Both the position numbers and the translations under genes were made by a program. Of a stretch of 64,000 nucleotides of DNA, positions 12,246 to 46,201 are shown one piece after another. Below the pieces are notes generated by a model. The model ran no database searches and was not told where the DNA came from. It worked only from the letters and a program-made list of their open reading frames with translations. Location: the IMG/VR virus record IMGVR_UViG_3300032312_001958; one strand, given 5' to 3'. The stretch comes from a virus. Its lineage: Duplodnaviria; Caudoviricetes. How positions within the stretch are numbered: the stretch's first letter is position 1; each line of letters begins with the position of its first letter.

Positions 12246-13517
12246 ATGATAAAAAATACAAAAATCTATTTACTATTATTAATTATTATAATGTCTGTTT
12301 TCTTTGTCGTTAAAACGTCAGTTTTACTTGAAATTCAAGAATCAACAAGAGTTACAAGAGGACTTGAATATATTTGTTTTATTTTGTTAATTCCTATATC
12401 AATATTACTGATTAAAGACTTTATCAAATCTACTAAAAATTCAATATCTAAAGAATCAGTAGATAAGCTAATTAAATTAGAAAATGAACTCACTAATAGA
12501 ATGAACGCAATTAATAAATCTAATGCGGTTATTGAGTTTGATTTAGAAGGGAATATTGTTTTTGCTAATGATTTGTTTATGAAAACTATGGGATATCTTT
12601 CACACGATGATATAGTTGGAAAACATCACAGAATATTTGTAGAAAATGAATATGAAAAAAGTGAGGATTATTGTCTTTTTTGGGGAAAATTAAGAAGTGG
12701 TGTATTATTTTCAGGGGAAATTGTTAGAGTTAAAAAAGATAAATCTTTGGTTTATTTACAAGCTACTTACAATCCTATTTTTGATACTGATGGTAAGATT
12801 TATCGTGTTATGAAAATTGCAATAGATATTACCGACAAAGTTTTACAGTCAAAAGAGATAGAAAGAAAGAATACATACTTGGAACATGCCGCTAAGATAT
12901 TAAGACACGACATGCATTCAGGTATTAACACTTACATGCCAAGAGGTGTTAACTCATTAGAAAGAAGGTTAACTCAAGAAGATATTATTAATCTTAAAAT
13001 TGAGGCTCCACTTAAAATGATTAAGGAGGGACTTAAACATTCACAGAAAGTTTACAAAGGTGTTTATGAGTTTACCAATCTTGTTAAGAAAGATGTGGTA
13101 TTGAACAAAGAAGAATGTAACATCAAGGACATACTCAAGGACTATTTGTCCTCGACGGCTTACGCAAGTCAGGTAGTGTTGGATGATAACCTACCAACAA
13201 TTGAATTAAATGAACCATTATTCTGTACTGCGGTGGATAACCTAATTAGAAATGGTTTAAAGTATAACGATTCTGAAACAAAGTTTGTTAACATATATTC
13301 TGAAGATAATTCAATTTCCGTACAAGATAATGGTAGAGGTATCACTCAAGAAGATTTTAATTATTTATCAAAACCTTATACTAGAAAAGAAGGACAGAAA
13401 GAATCAGGAACTGGTTTGGGTCTTAACATCTGTGTTGCGATTCTTGAAGAACATGGGTTTGAAATTACTTGTGAGAAAAATAAAATTGGAACTAAAATGA
13501 AAATTAAAATAAAATGA
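12246..13517 (+). CDS. membrane PAS/PAC sensor histidine kinase
   Basis: 2 TM; PAS (AVIEFDLEG..ANDLF...ATYNPI..KIAIDIT); H-box RHDMHS; N-box NLIRNGLKYN; DNGRG; GTGLGL. Confidence 0.92.
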   Translation: MIKNTKIYLLLLIIIMSVFFVVKTSVLLEIQESTRVTRGLEYICFILLIPISILLIKDFIKSTKNSISKESVDKLIKLENELTNRMNAINKSNAVIEFDLEGNIVFANDLFMKTMGYLSHDDIVGKHHRIFVENEYEKSEDYCLFWGKLRSGVLFSGEIVRVKKDKSLVYLQATYNPIFDTDGKIYRVMKIAIDITDKVLQSKEIERKNTYLEHAAKILRHDMHSGINTYMPRGVNSLERRLTQEDIINLKIEAPLKMIKEGLKHSQKVYKGVYEFTNLVKKDVVLNKEECNIKDILKDYLSSTAYASQVVLDDNLPTIELNEPLFCTAVDNLIRNGLKYNDSETKFVNIYSEDNSISVQDNGRGITQEDFNYLSKPYTRKEGQKESGTGLGLNICVAILEEHGFEITCEKNKIGTKMKIKIK

Positions 13518-14158
13518 GAAAGGTATTATTAGTTTTATTATTTGTGTTATTTGGAATGTTGTCTTATTCACAGACAAAGTACCCAATTAAAACCATCTTC
13601 AGAGGAGATTCTGTTGTTATTTTAACAATTCAGCAATCTGATAACATTAATAAGATGATTGAGAAAAACTTAAAATTAATAAAAGATAATAATGCGAAAG
13701 TTCAGGAGTATGTGGGTAGAATTAAAGTACTTGAACAAGAGGCTAATAACCAAAACGCTTATATTGATAGTTTGTCTAACGCTCTATTAAAGTGTCGGAA
13801 TAGTGTAGAAGTGGTGCAGTATAATTCAGATACATTATTAAAACAATATGATGAATTAAACCTAACAATCTATGAAATGGCGGTTGGACCAACACTTCTA
13901 TATACATTACCCCCATATAAAGACGTTTTATTCTTAAATCTAAAACATTTCAATATGTTTATTGATTCCGATGGGTCATTAATTCTTGAACGTATGACTC
14001 CGGTTCAAATGAAAAAATATGATAAGTGGAGAGAGACATATGGAAATGAGTCTTTAATGTATATTGATTATCAAAAAGTAATTAGGTTCCGAAATTTCCA
14101 AGACGAATTACTTGAAAGAGTTATATGGAAAAATAAATTTAATTACGATAGTAAATGA
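13514..14158 (+). CDS. exported coiled-coil protein
   Basis: signal peptide then heptad-rich region; ATGA-coupled between the two kinases. Confidence 0.75.
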   Translation: MRKVLLVLLFVLFGMLSYSQTKYPIKTIFRGDSVVILTIQQSDNINKMIEKNLKLIKDNNAKVQEYVGRIKVLEQEANNQNAYIDSLSNALLKCRNSVEVVQYNSDTLLKQYDELNLTIYEMAVGPTLLYTLPPYKDVLFLNLKHFNMFIDSDGSLILERMTPVQMKKYDKWRETYGNESLMYIDYQKVIRFRNFQDELLERVIWKNKFNYDSK

Positions 14159-15474
14159 AAAGAATAATCATTGTTTTACTCACACTATTTTGTTTCATTA
14201 ATGTTAACGGACAAGATACTTTAATTGATGGAATTAACGCAAGTTGGATAGACCCTGAAACTCAAACAGACAGTATGGTTGTATCTGAAATGAGAATTAG
14301 GGATTTAATTCCTGATAAGATTATGCCAAGTTGGATTGAACCTGATAAAATATTTGACAACCCAAAAGAATTAAGTCAGGAAGATGTGGAACTTTTGGAA
14401 GCGGATATTAAATTTATGACTGACCTCCCACAAAGTTATGATGAGTTACCTAAAGAAGATTTACAGAAAGTATTAACTCAAATTGATAATAAGATTATTG
14501 AATTAAGACAAGAGATTGACAATTTAATTAAGGCGAGAGCCAACGAGGAACTTATTAAAACAAAGAAAGGGACATTAACTGGTCTAGAAAAAGAAAAGAA
14601 TATCATCAACTTAACATTAACAGGTGGTGAACTTAAAGATGCAAATGGTAATTTGATTGGTCAGAATGATGAGTTAAAGATACAACAGGATAAACTTAAA
14701 AAATATCTTTATATTGCTTTAAGTGGTTTGGCTTTACTTGGTTTAGTAGTTGCGGTTGTGTTACAAAGAAAAAGAATACAGGTTCAAGATGTTGAAATTG
14801 AAGAACAACTTAATGACATTGCCAAAAAGAATAGTTATTTGGAACACGCAGCAAGAATCATCAGACACGATATGCACTCCGGTATTAACACTTATATGCC
14901 AAGAGGTATTACCTCATTAGAAAAAAGATTAACCACTGAAGACATTCAAAGATTAAAGATTGAAGGGGCGTTAAAAATGGTTAAGGAAGGTTTAAATCAT
15001 ACACAAAGAGTATATAAGAGTGTCTATGAATTCACCAATCTTGTTAAACAAAATGTTGTATTGAATAAAACTTTGGTTGACCCTAAAGATTTGATATGGA
15101 AATATATTTCACCAAATTCTTATAGTTCACAAGTTGAGGTATCTGATTTAAGTGAGATGGAGGTTAACGAAACTTTATTCTGTAACGCGGTTGAAAACTT
15201 AATTAAGAATGGTTTGTCATATAATGATAGTGAAGTTAAAAAAGTTAAAATATATAACGAAGAAGAATATTTAATAGTTGAGGACAACGGTAGAGGATTC
15301 TCACAAAAAGATTTTGAAAAACATTTAACGAAATATTCAAAAAAGGCAGATGTCACTGGTGATGAGAAAGGTCTTGGGTTGAATATATGTGTTGCGATAT
15401 TAGAAGAACATGGTTTCAAATTAACTTGTGAGAAAACTGAAAGTGGAACCAAAATGAAAATAAAAATAAAATAA
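14155..15474 (+). CDS. sensor histidine kinase with exported coiled-coil domain
   Basis: signal peptide, helical region, TM, RHDMHSGINTYMPRG, NLIKNG, DNGRG, KGLGL. Confidence 0.9.
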   Translation: MKRIIIVLLTLFCFINVNGQDTLIDGINASWIDPETQTDSMVVSEMRIRDLIPDKIMPSWIEPDKIFDNPKELSQEDVELLEADIKFMTDLPQSYDELPKEDLQKVLTQIDNKIIELRQEIDNLIKARANEELIKTKKGTLTGLEKEKNIINLTLTGGELKDANGNLIGQNDELKIQQDKLKKYLYIALSGLALLGLVVAVVLQRKRIQVQDVEIEEQLNDIAKKNSYLEHAARIIRHDMHSGINTYMPRGITSLEKRLTTEDIQRLKIEGALKMVKEGLNHTQRVYKSVYEFTNLVKQNVVLNKTLVDPKDLIWKYISPNSYSSQVEVSDLSEMEVNETLFCNAVENLIKNGLSYNDSEVKKVKIYNEEEYLIVEDNGRGFSQKDFEKHLTKYSKKADVTGDEKGLGLNICVAILEEHGFKLTCEKTESGTKMKIKIK

Positions 15475-15489
15475 AAGAGAAAGAAAAAA

Positions 15490-15921
15490 ATGATTGATTC
15501 AATCTTATTAGTGGATGACGAGGATTTATTCCACTTGGTTTTTGAGGACAGTTGCTCCTTGTTAGACATTACATTGTCATTAAAGAGTTTAAACAGCTCA
15601 GACGAAGCTGCTAAATTATTTGCCGATTGGCAGAAGAAATCTGACGGAAAACCTGAATGTGTGTTTGTTGATTTAAATATTATAGGTTCGTCATTTGATG
15701 GTATTGAACTTATCCGTAAGGTTAACTTTGAATATGGTAACCACGTAGTGATTGGTATTATATCTTCAAGTAATGAACCTGAAGAACAAGCTAAAGCGGT
15801 TCAGGCGGGAGCTCAGTTTTGGATTATTAAGTCCGATGATATTGAACCAAGATTGGAAGAATTCAAAAAAGATTACGAAGGATATAAAAACAGAACCGCA
15901 CCATTCAAAGTTTATAAATGA
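15490..15921 (+). CDS. single-domain response regulator (receiver)
   Basis: LLVDDE, FVDLN, DGIEL, ISSS, GAQFWIIK; no output domain. Confidence 0.9.
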   Translation: MIDSILLVDDEDLFHLVFEDSCSLLDITLSLKSLNSSDEAAKLFADWQKKSDGKPECVFVDLNIIGSSFDGIELIRKVNFEYGNHVVIGIISSSNEPEEQAKAVQAGAQFWIIKSDDIEPRLEEFKKDYEGYKNRTAPFKVYK

Positions 15922-16604
15922 TTGTTTTAGATAAAGATACAAAGAAGATATTAATTGAAACTTTGAAGACCAAGAACATTGGTCTTGAAGGTAACATTAC
16001 TAAATTAATAGACGCTCAAAATGATGAAGAGTTTAAAGAGTATCTTAAAACTTGTATTGAAAAAGATGTATCATCAAGACGGAAACGTTTAGAGATAACT
16101 AAACAAGTTCAGGTTCAGAACAAAGATTTAACCACACTCAACGAGGAAAACCAAAGAATGATGGAAGAACTTCAAAAAACATTAAAAAATGTTGAGGAGT
16201 CAAAACTAACATTTGAAGTTCAAAACAGAGAACTAAATGAATGGAAACAGGAGAATTTAAGATTGACAGATGAGCTCCAACAGGAAATGGTTAAATCAGA
16301 ACAGGCAAGAATAACTGCGGAAAATGCTAAAAACGAAGCGGAAAACAATTTAGATTTAATTCAAAAGAAAACTCAATTTGAGTTGATTAACAATATTGTT
16401 AGAGTTGCTCTTTATGTAATCATTGGTGTTGGAACCATAACTACTGGAATATATGTTTATTCTATGACAATAGGGATGGATACAGACATCATCGGTTCCA
16501 CTTGGAGTAATATGTTTGGTATCCTGTTAACAAACAGTTTCAGTATAGTGGGAACAATACTTGGGGTGAAGTATGGTGCGAGTCCTAACAAAGAAGATAA
16601 ATAA
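15918..16604 (+). CDS. coiled-coil protein with two C-terminal TM helices
   Basis: long E/Q/K heptads then two hydrophobic helices. Confidence 0.75.
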   Translation: MIVLDKDTKKILIETLKTKNIGLEGNITKLIDAQNDEEFKEYLKTCIEKDVSSRRKRLEITKQVQVQNKDLTTLNEENQRMMEELQKTLKNVEESKLTFEVQNRELNEWKQENLRLTDELQQEMVKSEQARITAENAKNEAENNLDLIQKKTQFELINNIVRVALYVIIGVGTITTGIYVYSMTIGMDTDIIGSTWSNMFGILLTNSFSIVGTILGVKYGASPNKEDK

Positions 16605-16622
16605 AAAATAAAAATAAAAAAA

Positions 16623-17159
16623 ATGAGTAGATTAAAAAAAATGTTATTTGGAGAAACACCTTACGTTAAGGTGGAAGATAAAAATCGTTTCTATTATATG
16701 TTGCAACAAATGCAATCAAATAGATGGAAAATTACAGGGATTATTTTATTCTTGTTTTTTTTCATAATTTTTGGTATCAATATGGCAGTTATGTTCCAAG
16801 TTGAGATTGCTGAAAATTGGAAAGAAATGTTGTTGATTTTATTTGGAGCCTTTGTAGGTAACTTGAATAAGGTTGTTGACTATTGGTTCAACTCTGAAGA
16901 TAGAGATAAGATGTTAATCCAAAAGGTTGATGAAGAAGACGGAAGTAGTTTATCAAATGTAAGTGAATTCCCAACAACTCCAAAACCACCACAAGAACCA
17001 ATTATTATTGTAAGACAAGAACCAACACCTGAACCAGTTGTTGAGGAACCACTACCATATGTTGAACCTGAAGTATACAACGAGGAACCACTACCATATG
17101 AAGAACCTTTAGCGGATGATGGATATGAAACTCCACCATCTGAAGAAGAAAATATTTAA
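16623..17159 (+). CDS. two-TM protein with Pro/Glu-rich tail
   Basis: two TM helices, VVDYWF, EEPLPY repeated twice. Confidence 0.75.
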   Translation: MSRLKKMLFGETPYVKVEDKNRFYYMLQQMQSNRWKITGIILFLFFFIIFGINMAVMFQVEIAENWKEMLLILFGAFVGNLNKVVDYWFNSEDRDKMLIQKVDEEDGSSLSNVSEFPTTPKPPQEPIIIVRQEPTPEPVVEEPLPYVEPEVYNEEPLPYEEPLADDGYETPPSEEENI

Positions 17160-17168
17160 AAAAAAAAG

Positions 17169-17196
17169 AAACCCGGTTTGATTGACCGGGTTTTTT
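17169..17196 (+). terminator. intrinsic terminator ending the two-component operon
   Basis: AAACCCGGT...ACCGGGTTTTTT. Confidence 0.8.
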
Positions 17197-40411: not shown

Positions 40412-41284
40412 ATGTCTAAAGGAAAAGATAGAATATTAAAGTTAATTGACGAGTTAGGTCTTTGGAATGCTAAAGAAGCTTTGGGTATTTCATTAACCAA
40501 AATTGTTAAATTAGTTGGGCTAAAGATTCATCCAAATTTGGCTGGCGAAATAATAATTGAAGGTATTAATAATGAAACCCTACCAACAGAATATAAAGAA
40601 TTTAAGATTTCAACAAATTCTGATGGCGTTGTTTATTGGGAAGGTAAATTTTATGGGGACCACTTCTTAGCTGATATGGTTGAAACAATATGGATAATGG
40701 CAACACCATTTTGGGATGGTGAAAGTTACACTCCAGTCGAAACTGATTGGTATTCGTTGGTTGATGGGTCTAAAAATACACTTATTGCTGAAATTGAAGG
40801 AGGTGGTGATTACTTTGAAACAATTAGTGATAAGGTTTTTTTTGATAGTGTAGAAGAGTTACATAATTGGTATAATGAGTATTATTTACCACGTGTGTAT
40901 AAAATAATTATGAATAACTTCTTACTTAGTCTACGACAAGATATGGATGATAGGTTAGATGACAATATGGGTTATAGTCCTATGAGAGAAAGTATTGCTA
41001 TAGTATTAAGAGAAGAAAGTGAAGGTGATGGTAATGTAGAAAAATTTATAAAAAAAGCCACAAATATAATCAATACAATTAAATTTCCTGCGGTTAAACG
41101 TATTGATTTTGATTACGACGAAATGATGGATGGATATCATGTTAATATATTTTTTGATAGACAATTTGCTATAGATAATCCCAAAAATTTTAATAAAGTA
41201 AAACAAAAAGCAGTCCAAGAAATTGGTTCAACCGTTACAAGTTATTTCCCGTTTAAATTTTTATTTTATTTGCATTACGAATAG
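40412..41284 (+). CDS. hypothetical two-module protein
   Basis: internal MRESIAIVLREE. Confidence 0.7.
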   Translation: MSKGKDRILKLIDELGLWNAKEALGISLTKIVKLVGLKIHPNLAGEIIIEGINNETLPTEYKEFKISTNSDGVVYWEGKFYGDHFLADMVETIWIMATPFWDGESYTPVETDWYSLVDGSKNTLIAEIEGGGDYFETISDKVFFDSVEELHNWYNEYYLPRVYKIIMNNFLLSLRQDMDDRLDDNMGYSPMRESIAIVLREESEGDGNVEKFIKKATNIINTIKFPAVKRIDFDYDEMMDGYHVNIFFDRQFAIDNPKNFNKVKQKAVQEIGSTVTSYFPFKFLFYLHYE

Positions 41285-41645
41285 TAATTACTTACTATCC
41301 AATATCTCTTCCACCAATTCATCTCCTCTCCACACACCTTCAATTTTTGTAAATACTTTATGATTTAATACCTCTTCCACCTTTTGTTCTCCCCACGTAC
41401 ATGCAATTGGGGTTGTTTCTACCTTATGATTTAATACCTCTTCCACCACGATTAATTCGGTTGAAGAAAACGTATTAGTTGTTTCTACCTTATGATTTAA
41501 TACCTCTTCCACCTGAACTTCTCAGTTCCAATCTCAGGCAGTGGTTGTTTCTACCTTATGATTTAATACCTCTTCCACCCTTTTCTTGTGTTTTCTGTCC
41601 AAAGGCAGAGTTATGGGTACCTTACTATTTAAGACCTCTTCCACC
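41280..41645 (-). repeat. CRISPR-like array: six 36-nt repeats, five unique 30-nt spacers, in frame with a CDS
   Basis: GTTGTTTCTACCTTATGATTTAATACCTCTTCCACC identical at 41412-41447, 41478-41513, 41544-41579; degenerate at 41280, 41346, 41610; exact 66-nt period. Confidence 0.92.
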
Positions 41646-41878
41646 CAAGAAGCAAGTATTGGCTCAAAGTCTTCACGTTCCAAAGAGAAAATCTCAAAGA
41701 AATTTGGAAAAAAACCATATCTCCAATACAATGCTCCACTATTCTCAAAATCAAAATACCAATACTTTTCTTCTCTATCAATGAACCATATGGAGCCATT
41801 GTATGGGATTATCTCCGCATTACCTAACTCTTTGTATAGACGTTTAAATATAATTTGTTTTAACTTATCTGAAACCAT
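41534..41878 (-). CDS. MKYLITES-family-related protein whose 3' end runs into the repeat array
   Basis: IIFKRL..WVEEVLNSKV matches the family pattern; stops at TGA inside a spacer; frame reopens to 41288. Confidence 0.7.
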   Translation of the reverse strand: MVSDKLKQIIFKRLYKELGNAEIIPYNGSIWFIDREEKYWYFDFENSGALYWRYGFFPNFFEIFSLEREDFEPILASWVEEVLNSKVPITLPLDRKHKKRVEEVLNHKVETTTA

Positions 41879-41914
41879 AGGACAAAGATAAGATAAAAAT
41901 TGTGGAACTACAAA

Positions 41915-42256
41915 TTAATATTCAGATGGTATTTTTAATGACGATTTGAGTTGCATTATCTTGTTGGACATTTGACCCTCCAAGTTTAGGGTTTTCTTAA
42001 CCCATTGTCCAACAACTCTGGTAGATTGATAATCGTTAAGAGAAAAGAAGGAAGAAACTTCTTTAATTAAATCCATATAAATAAAACACAATTCATTATT
42101 GGCGTGATTACCACCATATTTAATCTGAGCAAACTCATCATCGTTAGGGTGTTTAAAGTATGTACTGGCACCAATCTTAGATATTTCAAAATCTTGGCTA
42201 TTAAGATACTTGAATACGGATTTATCTAGTTGTGATTCGGTGATTAGGTATTTCAT
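41915..42256 (-). CDS. MKYLITESQ-family protein
   Basis: MKYLITESQLDKSVFKYL..AQI.Y..EVSSFFS..WV..TL. Confidence 0.8.
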   Translation of the reverse strand: MKYLITESQLDKSVFKYLNSQDFEISKIGASTYFKHPNDDEFAQIKYGGNHANNELCFIYMDLIKEVSSFFSLNDYQSTRVVGQWVKKTLNLEGQMSNKIMQLKSSLKIPSEY

Positions 42257-42624
42257 GAGAATGTTACACTTTTAACTGATTTAACTTCGTAGTCGGGGAA
42301 GTATTCATTAAATACATCTGACAGAATGAAATCGCTGTGAACCCACCAAATTGGATGGGGAAATGCCTCACCATATATATTATCAAGTTGTCTACTATAA
42401 TATAATTCACCACTTTGTTTTATATACATCATCATTAGTTTTCCTTCAGAGTCGAATAAACCAATTCTAAATTCACTTTCATCATATGAATCAACCAAAT
42501 TTACAAAATAAGGAACAAACTTATGTTTAAGTTTCTCATACTTTTCAGCGTACTCAATATTTCTCCAAGTTCTTTCAAGCTCGGTAATTAACTTATATTG
42601 TGATTCTGTTATAATGTATTTCAT
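42253..42624 (-). CDS. MKYIITESQ-leader protein
   Basis: leader. Confidence 0.78.
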   Translation of the reverse strand: MKYIITESQYKLITELERTWRNIEYAEKYEKLKHKFVPYFVNLVDSYDESEFRIGLFDSEGKLMMMYIKQSGELYYSRQLDNIYGEAFPHPIWWVHSDFILSDVFNEYFPDYEVKSVKSVTFS

Positions 42625-42647
42625 GTAGTGATAAATATCTTATTATT

Positions 42648-43013
42648 TTACTTAACTATTAATCTGTAATACATGTCACCATTTCCAGCATCATTAACAT
42701 CATCATAATTAATTTTAAGATTTAGTTTATCACCGACCCAATCCGCAATAACTTTTAATAATTTAGATTTAGGTATAGGTAAAAATAAAGTTACCAACTC
42801 AATTAATTCACGACTAACATATAACCAATCTCTAACTTCACCAAAAGCATTTAAGTGATAGACACTTATTTGTGCGGTATCATCTGATTCGTTATTTAAA
42901 AAATAAATGTAATTGTTAAATTTTTTACCATTATCCATTATAATAAAATTATGACTGTCCAAATATTTTTGTACAACATTTTCTAATTTAGATTCTGTGA
43001 TAATGTATTTCAT
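42648..43013 (-). CDS. MKYIITES-family protein
   Basis: leader; KYLD..AQI..WV..KL. Confidence 0.78.
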   Translation of the reverse strand: MKYIITESKLENVVQKYLDSHNFIIMDNGKKFNNYIYFLNNESDDTAQISVYHLNAFGEVRDWLYVSRELIELVTLFLPIPKSKLLKVIADWVGDKLNLKINYDDVNDAGNGDMYYRLIVK

Positions 43014-43366
43014 ATGTATAAATCAAGGAATTGTTCTAATGTTATTCCAAGAGCGGAGATACCCAAAAGGCTCATAAAGTTGGACTCTTCATACCCATCA
43101 CCTCTATTATCAAGAATCAATGGGTGGTTTGAACTATAATTCATTTGATATAATACCTTATGATTATCATCCAATTCTATAAGATACATCGGACCATAGT
43201 TATCACCTAATTGTCTTCTTCGTAAACCATCGTAAGTAAAATAGAAATCAAAATCATTCAGTATTTTATATATGCTCGGGTCAAGCTCCACACGACCTGT
43301 GAGGTCAATATTAAACTTGTTTTTAATAAATGTTTTTAATTTAGATTCAGTGATTAATAGTTTCAT
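43010..43366 (-). CDS. MKLLITES-leader protein (start revised)
   Basis: leader directly after ATATTTAT. Confidence 0.75.
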   Translation of the reverse strand: MKLLITESKLKTFIKNKFNIDLTGRVELDPSIYKILNDFDFYFTYDGLRRRQLGDNYGPMYLIELDDNHKVLYQMNYSSNHPLILDNRGDGYEESNFMSLLGISALGITLEQFLDLYI

Positions 43367-43379
43367 GTTATTATAAATA

Positions 43380-43712
43380 TTAATTAGACGGAATCTGCAT
43401 CCACTCAGATTTAATATTATTGGCCCACAAACAATAATCAATATCTACCTTTAAGGTCTCCCCAACCCATCTACCGATAGCTTCCCTAGCATCATAACCT
43501 TGCATAGAAAAGAAAGAAGCAACCTCACCAATTAATCCTGTATATATGACACATTTACTATCCTTATTAAAATATCTAATCTGTGCATATTCATCACCTT
43601 CTGAATTTACAAAGTATACACCATCACCTTTCTTAATCTGAATGAAGTCCTGATTATCCAAGTATTTAAAAATTAATTTGTCAAATTGTGATTCGGTGAT
43701 TAATACTTTCAT
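43380..43712 (-). CDS. MKVLITESQ-family protein (start revised)
   Basis: IFKYLDNQDFIQI..YFVNSEGDEYAQIRY. Confidence 0.8.
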   Translation of the reverse strand: MKVLITESQFDKLIFKYLDNQDFIQIKKGDGVYFVNSEGDEYAQIRYFNKDSKCVIYTGLIGEVASFFSMQGYDAREAIGRWVGETLKVDIDYCLWANNIKSEWMQIPSN

Positions 43713-43744
43713 ATAATAGTAAATATAATTATATTTATAATAAT

Positions 43745-44107
43745 ATGAACTTAGAAAAGACAATAAGAAGAATATTAAAGGAAGAGTCCAAAAAAGACAG
43801 GTTGATTGATAGATATATAACATCATTAATTAATCCTAGTAGTGGTAAATACAATCGTGATGATAAAAGGTTTGAGATGAGTGACAATGATGATAACCTA
43901 AATGCGATTATATTCTTTAACCAACAAGATGACGTGATGATGGTAATGATTGATGATAGTATATGGGAACAAGTATCCGATATGTTTTCAATAGATGATT
44001 GGAATGAGATGAATGATTATTTAGTTAAATGGTTCCAAGATAATTTTGACGGGTTAGAGGATTTATCTGAAGTAATTACATTTGATAACGCTGAATTTGC
44101 TTACTAA
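43745..44107 (+). CDS. IRRILKEE-leader protein
   Basis: MNLEKTIRRILKEE. Confidence 0.75.
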   Translation: MNLEKTIRRILKEESKKDRLIDRYITSLINPSSGKYNRDDKRFEMSDNDDNLNAIIFFNQQDDVMMVMIDDSIWEQVSDMFSIDDWNEMNDYLVKWFQDNFDGLEDLSEVITFDNAEFAY

Positions 44108-44108
44108 T

Positions 44109-44729
44109 ATGAACCTACAAGAAACAATAAGAAGAGTACTAAGAGAAGAATTATCACCAAGGATAAGAAGAAGACTTTCTATTGATGAAATGGAAAATGA
44201 GTTTCTTGAATCTTTTGAAGGTGCTTATCGTCTTACAAAAGACAGAAAGGTTTTAAGTTCACATTTTTTAGATGTGTTACTCTACACAACAATAACCTTT
44301 ATGATGGATAGTGTTCATTGGAGATTTGTTAGCACATTACCTGAAGATGAATTTTGGTATGATGATATACATAAAGAATTAGAAAATCATTATAGAGACA
44401 GAATTATACAGATGTATAATGAAAGGAAGGGAATTAAAGAATCAATATTAAGGGAAGAAACTGAGTTACCTGCTTATATTAGAAGAAGGGTGACCTCTGA
44501 TGACCTTGAGTGGTTGATTAGGGATGTTAAAATTTCTTTAAGTAGGGGAAAGAATAAAAGTGATGCCTTATATGATGCAATTCAAAATCTTATTTCGTCA
44601 AACAGAGAACTGTTAAAGGATTATGATATGTTCCAAGACGTGTATGCATTTGACGAACCACTAATTAGATATATCAATTCAAAATTGGACGAGGAACCGT
44701 TAAATGAATCTACATGTGGAAGATTATAA
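44109..44729 (+). CDS. IRRVLREE-leader protein with two related modules (start revised)
   Basis: LREELSPRIRRR and LREETELPAYIRRR. Confidence 0.75.
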   Translation: MNLQETIRRVLREELSPRIRRRLSIDEMENEFLESFEGAYRLTKDRKVLSSHFLDVLLYTTITFMMDSVHWRFVSTLPEDEFWYDDIHKELENHYRDRIIQMYNERKGIKESILREETELPAYIRRRVTSDDLEWLIRDVKISLSRGKNKSDALYDAIQNLISSNRELLKDYDMFQDVYAFDEPLIRYINSKLDEEPLNESTCGRL

Positions 44730-44749
44730 TGGGGAGTGGAAAATAATTA

Positions 44750-45058
44750 CTATCTAATTATAACTTCTTTAACTCTTCTATCCAAAGTATTCTCAACCCA
44801 TCTAGCAATAACATATTTAGAACTATTAAATTCTATAGAGAAGAAATCTTTAATCTCATCAATTAACTCAAAACTTATTACACACTCACCACTTCTAAAG
44901 TATTCGATTAATGAGTCGATTAATGAGTCGATATATTCACCACCTTCAGAATTGGCGAAGTATATTGCGTTTCCTCTTTTAATCTGAATAAAGTCCTGAT
45001 TGTCAAGATACTTAAAGATTATTCTATCTATTTGCGATTCTGTTATAAGGTATTTCAT
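44750..45058 (-). CDS. MKYLITESQ-family protein
   Basis: IFKYLDNQDFIQI; contains a 12-nt tandem duplication at 44904-44927. Confidence 0.8.
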   Translation of the reverse strand: MKYLITESQIDRIIFKYLDNQDFIQIKRGNAIYFANSEGGEYIDSLIDSLIEYFRSGECVISFELIDEIKDFFSIEFNSSKYVIARWVENTLDRRVKEVIIR

Positions 45059-45074
45059 TATTGATAAATATTAG

Positions 45075-45485
45075 TTAACAGTCACCTGTATTATGGACCT
45101 CAATATTATGACCTTTAATTAAACCGCCACCGAACTGATATAATGCCTTAGAAATAACATCTCTATACATACTTCTAAGACCTTCGTCAAACATATACCT
45201 TCCCTCATTCTCAGGAGCTGGCTTAGGTGTATAGACAACCAAATCCATAGAGTACTGAGTGGGTATGATAATATATTTACAATATATCAAAAGTGGGGAA
45301 ATATCATTTTTAAATATAGTTTTTGTTAGAAAGATAATATCTTCCTTAGTTCCCTTAATACCCATCTCATTAATAATCTCTTTAGGCGTCCTACTTGTCA
45401 TTTCACATAGTGCACGCATTCCAAATTTCTCTAATAAAGGTTTAAGGTTTTTATTACTTTGATTTTCGGTGATTATTACTTTCAT
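45075..45485 (-). CDS. MKVIITENQ-leader protein
   Basis: leader. Confidence 0.72.
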   Translation of the reverse strand: MKVIITENQSNKNLKPLLEKFGMRALCEMTSRTPKEIINEMGIKGTKEDIIFLTKTIFKNDISPLLIYCKYIIIPTQYSMDLVVYTPKPAPENEGRYMFDEGLRSMYRDVISKALYQFGGGLIKGHNIEVHNTGDC

Positions 45486-45493
45486 ATGATATA

Positions 45494-45823
45494 TTAGTTA
45501 TTAACTCTTATCCATACATTCGGTGCGGGTTTAGCCTCACGGGTTTGTACAACTATCATTTTGAGGGTATCCTCGACCCATCTACTGATAAGTTTAATGG
45601 ACTCGGAGATACTCAAAGAAAAGAAAGAAGACACTTCATTAATTAAACTTACGACAATGTAACACCAACCACTAATTTTATCATATCTAATCTCAGAGTA
45701 TTCATCATCTTCTGAATTAACAAAAAATATAGTTGCACCCTTTCTAATCTGAACAAAATCCTGATTGTCCAAATATTTAAAGATTGCTCTGTCTAATTGT
45801 GATTCTGATATTAAGTATTTCAT
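45494..45823 (-). CDS. MKYLISESQ-family protein
   Basis: IFKYLDNQDFVQI..WVEDTL. Confidence 0.8.
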   Translation of the reverse strand: MKYLISESQLDRAIFKYLDNQDFVQIRKGATIFFVNSEDDEYSEIRYDKISGWCYIVVSLINEVSSFFSLSISESIKLISRWVEDTLKMIVVQTREAKPAPNVWIRVNN

Positions 45824-45830
45824 AATTTAA

Positions 45831-46109
45831 TTAATTAGAGTTTAAGAATTTAAATAATGCTCTAACATAATCGGCACGTTTGACATAAAATTCAGTATCA
45901 TTACCATACTGTAAAAACTCATCACCTCTATGTTTATCAATGAACTTTTCAAGTAATTCATAAGCGTAGTCATCTCTGTCAGCAGAATCTTCAAAATCCT
46001 CGTCATCCATAATATAGTTATAATCATCTTTAAGCCCTTCCAATTCATCCATTGTAAACCTTCTAAGTAAAAATGTGTCTAATTGTGATTCTGTGATAAT
46101 GTATTTCAT
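45831..46109 (-). CDS. MKYIITESQ-leader protein (start revised)
   Basis: leader after ATATTTAT. Confidence 0.75.
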   Translation of the reverse strand: MKYIITESQLDTFLLRRFTMDELEGLKDDYNYIMDDEDFEDSADRDDYAYELLEKFIDKHRGDEFLQYGNDTEFYVKRADYVRALFKFLNSN

Positions 46110-46201
46110 ATGATAATAAATATGATAAAACCACAATTATTGGTAAAGCACATTTGATTAATCAAATTAAAAAACATATTATTGTTTTAAATTAACAATA
46201 T

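Follow-up and report, generated by a model that had tools for sequence, protein, structure and literature searches.

We describe a gene of a large lake-water phage whose 3′ part is built like a CRISPR array, with six repeats of 36 nt and five spacers of 30 nt, and whose relatives carry such arrays in an open reading frame. The gene starts at position 41878 on the minus strand of a stretch of 64,000 nt from the tailed-phage record IMGVR_UViG_3300032312_001958 (Caudoviricetes), and this whole stretch is referred to as the window. We hold it to be moderately likely that the gene contains a translated CRISPR-type array which grows by the insertion of units next to the gene body, probably through the Cas1-Cas2 of a host acting in trans, with the reading frame kept by selection. 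The wider proposition, to which we would give about an even chance, is that host Cas1-Cas2, acting on a gene end that mimics a CRISPR repeat, adds cellular DNA to a phage protein in 30-nt pieces that become 10-residue cassettes, and that selection keeps the readable and useful ones. Such a system would be a protein diversity generator built on CRISPR adaptation.

A preliminary description of the locus, made from the letters of the sequence, had reported six repeats with a 66-nt period, five unrelated spacers and three identical central copies, continuing the ORF that starts at 41878 on the minus strand. Our analysis confirmed this arrangement. Repeats follow each other at a start-to-start distance of exactly 66 nt (Table 1). 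The three central copies agree in every base (100% identity), and identity to them is 64%, 86% and 81% in the outer copies. The spacers, called inserts in the following, are 23-47% identical to one another, a level no different from that of their likeness to flanking DNA (10-33%). As in CRISPR arrays, near-identical direct repeats of fixed length thus alternate with unique spacers of fixed length, in the window and likewise in 56 arrays of relatives. A position-weight scan of the window for this repeat type returned five matches, all at the array, and none in the shuffled window. On the minus strand the frame of the gene continues through the array to a TAA codon within the last, degenerate repeat. 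Its sole interruptions are the TGA codons at 41534-41536 and 41522-41524, both in the spacer in which they had been noticed. Since insert 2 carries these two codons, the product of the window gene ends at 114 residues and the three units downstream are left unread. A total of 7 positions distinguish repeat 1 from repeats 2-4, a pattern that would not be expected from a recent duplication of the first repeat.

Table 1. Features of the array gene in the window (positions in plus-strand numbering)
Feature	Position	Strand	Remarks
TAnnTTTG motif, candidate promoter (Bacteroidota -7 type)	41883..41890	-	directly upstream of the ATG
Present ORF of the array gene, 114 aa	41534..41878	-	head domain, repeat 1, insert 1, repeat 2 and start of insert 2; stop is the first TGA (41534-41536)
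Repeat 1	41610..41645	-	native last helix of the head domain encoded here; identity to the central repeats 81%; PWM 51.9 bits
Insert 1, 30 nt	41580..41609	-	private to the window
Repeat 2	41544..41579	-	identical to repeats 3 and 4; 55.3 bits
Insert 2	41514..41543	-	two in-frame TGA; no other of the 168 families bears a stop
Formerly translated tail (three units and terminal repeat)	41288..41533	-	downstream of the TGA codons; frame still open
Repeat 3	41478..41513	-	one of three identical central copies
Insert 3	41448..41477	-	private to the window
Repeat 4	41412..41447	-	one of three identical central copies
Insert 4	41382..41411	-	same 10-residue cassette as the first, translated cassette of ortholog P0121
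Repeat 5	41346..41381	-	86% identical to the central repeats; 44.1 bits
Insert 5	41316..41345	-	8-9 of 10 residues common to orthologs P0065, P0051 and P0121; translated there
Terminal degenerate repeat (64%)	41280..41315	-	contains the original stop TAA (41288-41290); shares a few bases with the end of the convergent gene 40412-41284

By protein search, the gene belongs to a family of at least 893 protein clusters, all of them unnamed or annotated as 'hypothetical' and some located on contigs of about 294 kb. In its members, 2-11 units of 66 nt come after a head domain of about 90 residues, and every unit is read as 12 constant and 10 variable residues (36-nt repeat and 30-nt insert). A scan of IMG/VR for the repeat core detected about 35 arrays, spread over 14 contigs with lengths of up to 241 kb. 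Up to four array genes stand in tandem on one contig, with 330-430 nt between the arrays, which corresponds to the head domain of the next gene. The family occurs in jumbo phages with genomes of about 300 kb, in which the majority of genes lack annotation. Family members drawn from NCBI are located in bulk metagenome assemblies. The family is abundant in lakes, and in a full-text search of the literature we found no published description of it or of translated CRISPR-type arrays; the paper PMC10392669 deals with other repeat systems.

The head domain is recognized by its length of about 90 residues, a conserved Y15, an FFS[LMI] motif and W78 followed by V-[EK]-x-x-L, and all of these hallmarks are present in the window gene. 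The head domain can be aligned with array-less paralogs from the window and from G001, the nearest virus record (alignment A2). As the invariant Trp and the V-[EK]-x-x-L behind it are common to all of them, the first “repeat” corresponds to the native C-terminal helix of the family. The alignment thereby bears out the earlier observation that the repeat peptide resembles the C-terminal motif of neighbouring paralogs. An AlphaFold model of the 114-residue ORF (pLDDT 73) places a helix, four strands and two helices in residues 1-88, followed by a disordered tail. Searches with the head domain gave no match in Pfam, PHROG or PDB (best PDB Z 4.7), and its matches in the ESM-Atlas are clusters of viral hypothetical proteins of 101-114 aa. 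The head domain is a phage-specific domain with an alpha/beta fold predicted at moderate confidence. For the repeat region, a model of low confidence (pLDDT 40-57) gives a solenoid with one unit per turn and has generic solenoid/LRR matches only.

In the relatives, the reading frame is open through all repeats and inserts in every case. Not a single in-frame stop occurs in 167 insert families (1,670 codons), and the two TGA codons of the window are the only stops in all 168 families (1,680 codons). From shuffled sequences, about 0.63 stops would be expected in each insert, and 24-56 stops per 73 inserts occur in the other frames. The ratio pN/pS amounts to 0.39 for the inserts (p=0.01) and to 0.68 for the repeats, and variation of the repeats is concentrated at third codon positions. 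From this pattern, the arrays of the relatives appear to be translated, with both repeats and inserts under purifying selection at the protein level. The units downstream of the TGA-bearing insert in the window are the same cassettes that are translated in the orthologs P0121 and P0065, and the peptide of the terminal repeat also forms the end of P0065. The window allele is therefore the truncated one. Its stop-bearing insert shows that insertion ignores coding and is direct evidence on this point. An alternative genetic code with TGA as a sense codon was considered and rejected on the grounds that TGA is absent from the 1,670 insert codons of the relatives.

Comparison among relatives revealed a turnover of the array by whole units. 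The similarity between inserts is bimodal, with either 1-3 or at least 12 mismatches and almost no intermediates, and within none of the 56 arrays is an insert duplicated. In orthologous arrays, head domains differ by 2.5% per site and shared inserts by only 1.2%, yet 40% of the inserts are unshared; the change is thus due to the replacement of entire units and not to mutation. The order of shared inserts is kept in 314 of 319 pairs, with five conflicts. The arrays are also polar. The fraction of inserts that are shared is 0.15 next to the gene and reaches 0.52 at the distal position, and the mismatch between flanking repeats climbs from 2.4 to 6.8 along the array, the proximal repeats being the most uniform. 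Polar growth, conserved order and a degenerate trailer repeat (the terminal copy in the window) are features of CRISPR arrays. Taken together, the comparison suggests that these arrays evolve like a CRISPR array and unlike a coding repeat. Two further comparisons addressed predictions of recent insertion: private inserts showed no enrichment between identical repeats in the 56 arrays, and no clear excess of synonymous-site conservation was seen in the codons that precede the first repeat.

The boundary between constant and variable sequence lies one base before the Val codon and hence out of codon phase. In 77 of 78 families the first repeat codon is preceded by a G, and the last repeat codon has a free wobble base. 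As a consequence of the fixed G, the last residue of a cassette is limited to NNG codons (261 of 268 cassettes). With boundaries that had been set beforehand from conservation alone, the consensus repeat was compared with the CRISPR-2 (VI-B) repeat of Flavobacterium columnare as printed in Table 4 of PMC5395568. In register and in the transcribed orientation, 23 of 36 positions agree, a value reached by one of 200,000 shuffles; the II-C repeat or the opposite strand yields only 11-17 of 36. The agreement takes in the leader-distal end, which is common to VI-B and II-C repeats. In F. columnare, the VI-B array has 36-bp repeats and gains new spacers of mostly 30 bp, which are loaded in trans by the II-C Cas1 and about half of which derive from the host genome; VI-B and II-C repeats share only their leader-distal end (PMC8092290).

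A resemblance to a Cas13b-associated repeat had been suggested in the preliminary description for Prevotella and could be verified here for F. columnare instead. Its remark that the terminal hairpin is missing also holds, as the window repeat lacks terminal pairing. A VI-B repeat is characterized by a length of 36 nt, paired ends and a central hairpin bound by Cas13b, and the central hairpin or stem of the published repeat is absent from the phage repeat as well. A scan of the locus with Rfam found no CRISPR-DR family and returned snoRNA and sRNA matches at chance level only. The repeat core had no match in 185,579 species genomes.

The inserts differ in composition from the genes that carry them. 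Their GC content is 44% (0.48, 0.42 and 0.38 by codon position) as compared with 0.31, 0.29 and 0.30 in head domains, and their amino-acid composition correlates with the expectation for random codons (r=0.87) and much less with the composition of head domains (r=0.39). A GC content of 44% is higher than we would expect for a Flavobacterium source. Counted over the other five frames, stop-free frames are in excess of shuffled inserts by 0.46 (z=6.4); in control sets, coding DNA in random frames reached an excess of 0.33 and coding DNA in its true frame one of 0.09. The dinucleotide TpA is depleted in the inserts (odds 0.62). Both the excess of stop-free frames and the depletion of TpA argue that the inserts are not products of random synthesis. 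These properties match natural DNA that would have been captured in a random frame and subsequently filtered.

For the origin of this DNA, the preliminary description had proposed a search of the spacers against phage and host genomes; no protospacer was found in related phages or GenBank phages. In detail, 246 kb of related phage loci, five large related contigs, GenBank phages and PLSDB plasmids gave matches at chance level only. Bacterial genomes were searched with the core of one GC-rich insert alone, which had no match in 185,579 species genomes, and the TGA-bearing insert had none in IMG/VR and JGI metagenome contigs.

The window is gene-dense, has a GC content of about 31% and encodes phage-type functions. 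Histidine-kinase homologs proved to be from phages without exception, and homologs of Gmd are at most 55% identical. A tRNA scan of the window found none. In agreement with the preliminary description, no cas gene is present: a Pfam scan of 30 ORFs revealed no Cas, integrase or RT domain, and with 472 aa the largest ORF falls short of the size needed for a cas13b beside the array. Cas1, Cas2 and RT (RVT_1) are likewise absent from five relatives whose sequences are 45-82% complete, so that an enzyme of this kind would have to come from a host. In the nearest virus record, both flanks of the array gene are kept (97% and 90% identity), and the same slot is occupied by a different, array-less paralog. 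The 3′ ends of neighbouring paralogs contain no other repeat types; only the conserved 5′ ends and the W-V motif recur. Megablast of the region and tblastn of the protein gave no match among GenBank phages. Scans for sigma-70 promoters and terminators near the array yielded nothing above shuffled sequences. Ahead of other ORFs in the window, the TAnnTTTG motif is commonest at -20 to -11 (8 of 14 occurrences), and such a fixed distance fits a putative Bacteroidota host.

Part of these observations could also be read as the remains of an array that no longer grows. A host array of VI-B type might have been captured once and fused to the gene, and would since have changed by loss, swapping and shuffling of units from an old cassette pool, with no integration at present. 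Hybrid repeats and deletions are indeed seen, which means active recombination between repeats, and repeat variants travel together with inserts (L010 vs L014). The five order conflicts, the private inserts unenriched between identical repeats, the lack of protospacers in the collections searched and the slow evolution of inserts under purifying selection point in the same direction. We nevertheless regard this explanation as unlikely. The pool is very large, with 249 families of cassettes counted over 120 proteins and 168 over 56 DNA arrays, and the composition of the inserts shows no drift towards the 31% GC of the genome. Moreover, the gene-proximal position is by far the most variable and the proximal repeats are the most homogeneous, and the stop-bearing insert of the window, flanked by identical repeats, looks recent. 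Recombination between repeats had also figured among the initial proposals, as a library of cassettes exchanging C-terminal peptides; the hybrid repeats and deletions support the recombination as such, but it removes or swaps units and leaves the origin of new ones unexplained.

If the arrays were functional RNA, their transcripts would serve as crRNA arrays or as decoys for host Cas13b or Cas9, and translation would be incidental, for example protecting the transcript. The coding strand carries the repeat in the transcribed VI-B orientation, and huge phages are known with cas-less arrays that may use host Cas proteins (PMC7162821). As an RNA decoy or mini-array, this idea was part of the preliminary description, and we disfavour it because the insert codons of the relatives are free of stops and purifying selection acts on the protein, synonymous changes exceeding non-synonymous ones in repeats and inserts. 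The absent VI-B hairpin, the unpaired ends of the window repeat, the failure to match a CRISPR-DR family in Rfam and the lack of insert targets in related phages, GenBank phages and plasmids add to this, so that a functional RNA is very unlikely. An ordinary protein tandem repeat of 22 residues, arisen by slippage or unequal crossing-over and with 10-residue loops under diversifying selection, would make the likeness to CRISPR a coincidence. Such a repeat is suggested by a unit that is a multiple of three, the frame that is open in all relatives, the derivation of the repeat from the family's own C-terminal helix and the modelled solenoid of low confidence. It should, however, leave graded divergence and recent duplicates, and instead there are 0 duplicated inserts within 56 non-identical arrays, almost no intermediates between identical and unrelated inserts, and shared inserts that evolve more slowly than the head domain. 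Spacers that can be aligned or are fixed across relatives had been named beforehand as the mark of a protein repeat, and the spacers are neither. With the boundary out of codon phase and its invariant third-position G, the GC-rich inserts of random-codon composition and the in-register match to a CRISPR repeat, we judge this origin highly improbable. Least probable of all is a phage-encoded inserter of another kind, neither Cas1 nor reverse transcriptase, that adds the units. Genomes of about 300 kb with mostly unannotated genes leave room for one, but no candidate gene adjoins the arrays, and in their 36+30 layout as well as their repeat ends the arrays agree with a known substrate of Cas1-Cas2 (PMC8092290).

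The preferred reading, growth of a translated array by unit insertion, can be outlined as follows. At the DNA level, the array would be of CRISPR type and related to the type VI-B arrays of Flavobacterium, with the gene body standing where a leader is usually found and a 36-nt repeat that re-encodes the last helix of the head domain. New units would join singly at the gene-proximal end by the spacer-integration reaction. The likeliest enzyme would be a type II-C-like Cas1-Cas2 of the Bacteroidota host working in trans, as on the Cas1-less VI-B array of F. columnare. Inserts would be pieces of natural DNA captured regardless of reading frame. As the array would be translated, new inserts with stops would be purged by selection and those kept would stay under purifying selection, while recombination between repeats may delete units and distal repeats may decay.

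A gene end that gains 22-codon cassettes in the manner of CRISPR had been the first of the initial proposals and fits best, by virtue of the polar and ordered turnover, the absence of duplicates, the replacement of whole units in place of hypermutation, the out-of-phase boundary, the VI-B similarity and the natural-DNA character of the inserts. Because no protospacer was found, we infer the role of Cas1-Cas2 and the source of the inserts in this proposal. As for the function of the array, our guess is that it diversifies a displayed peptide surface for the conflict between phage and host.

If units are added by spacer integration, CRISPR adaptation gains a second output besides guide RNAs, namely the extension and diversification of proteins. 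A phage would then exploit the immune machinery of its host, and a new generator of diversity would stand alongside DGRs and cassette-assembled receptors. The same process would account for a part of the cas-less arrays in huge phages and would provide a natural scaffold tolerating arbitrary 10-residue inserts. Even on the more modest reading, in which a CRISPR array was exapted and now serves as a coding repeat, this remains a family for which we found no published description.

Several known systems combine a constant scaffold with a hypervariable part and diversify at one locus, such as DGRs, lamprey VLRs and TALE repeats. The phage arrays resemble DGRs and cassette-built binding proteins in this constant scaffold repeat and hypervariable part at one locus. 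They differ from DGRs in the absence of a reverse transcriptase and of a template repeat, in variable parts that are mutually unrelated instead of mutated copies, and in the gain and loss of whole units. A DGR has a reverse transcriptase and a template repeat whose differences from the variable region fall mainly at adenines; a DGR target was accordingly rejected as a candidate, with no RVT_1 in the five relatives and no relationship among the inserts. Closer to the proposed reaction are the off-target “neo-CRISPR” integrations at genomic leader-repeat-like sites, which Nivala et al. reportedly observed in 2018 as rare laboratory events in E. coli. They resemble the present case in that an array can arise outside a CRISPR locus when Cas1-Cas2 integrates a spacer and the repeat-like sequence flanking it is duplicated, and differ from it in that they do not form a conserved, translated gene family.

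Among natural arrays, the compact cas-less CRISPR arrays of huge phages, with a median of six repeats, are comparable (Al-Shayeb et al. 2020, PMC7162821). Like the arrays of the family, they occur in phages of more than 200 kb, have few repeats and go without Cas1, Cas2 and Cas4. Some contain host-like repeats, and reliance on host Cas proteins has been supposed for them. In contrast to the family, they are described as non-coding guide arrays, some with phage or host targets, and in-frame translation is not reported for them. The VI-B array of F. columnare (Hoikkala et al. 2021, PMC8092290) differs in that the phage array lies inside an ORF, is free of stops in relatives and under selection at the protein level, and has no central hairpin, no nearby Cas13b gene and no protospacers found. 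The two nevertheless share the 36-nt repeat, the 30-nt spacers and the lack of adaptation genes of their own; the phage array probably grows, like that of F. columnare, at the end facing the transcription start, and in both the spacers need not target anything useful.

The slot of the array gene, the minus-strand reading frame that ends in 36-nt repeats with 30-nt inserts, is a swap site. Both of its flanks are kept in G001, the nearest virus record, with 97% and 90% identity, and the slot is occupied there by a different paralog of the array-gene family, which comprises 111 aa and carries no array. At its 3′ end, the array gene faces a convergent gene, the final bases of which are overlapped by the terminal degenerate repeat. 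Since the two stop codons are separated by three bases only, there is no space for a terminator between these genes.

Next to the slot, about ten small paralogous genes are clustered, with 5′ ends nearly identical in DNA and a W-V motif conserved close to their 3′ ends. A second small family on the opposite strand likewise shows conserved 5′ ends. On the metagenome contig L046, three array genes are arranged in tandem, one of them with at least 11 units of repeat and insert, and identical pairs are frequent among neighbouring repeats of these arrays. Window-wide, the motif TAnnTTTG was found 5′ of 13 of the 95 ORFs (for example at 41883-41890), with 8 of its 14 occurrences in the bin from -20 to -11; this placement suggests candidate Bacteroidota-type promoters with very short leaders.

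Coordinates of the features in the window and of compared loci
Feature	Position	Strand	Match or remark
Array-gene slot	41287-41919		compared with L001 2376-2770, a locus from the G001 comparison
Convergent gene	40412-41284		junction with the array gene at 41280-41290
Paralog cluster	41915-46136	-	
Second small family	43745-44729	+	
GmrSD_N + HNH protein, 462 aa	46202-47590	+	adjoins paralog cluster
Tad6 match, 256 aa	6781-7551	+	Pfam Tad6, E 3e-17
Two PAS/HATPase histidine kinases	12246-17196	+	
Short adenylosuccinate-synthetase homolog, 340 aa	31506-32528	+	Pfam E 1e-85
Tandem array genes	L046 1-2602		

Phage adenylosuccinate-synthetase homologs of about 340 aa can include PurZ-type enzymes, which serve 2-aminoadenine DNA synthesis. 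Close homologs of the first histidine kinase number thousands, every one on phage contigs, and some show an additional fused GAF domain, with a response regulator coming after them; the signalling module is conserved throughout the phage group of the window. Judging by its domains, the GmrSD_N + HNH protein would be a phage-encoded restriction-type nuclease. The Tad6-matching protein is a candidate anti-defence gene product, Tad6 being a Pfam family of inhibitors of type I Thoeris.
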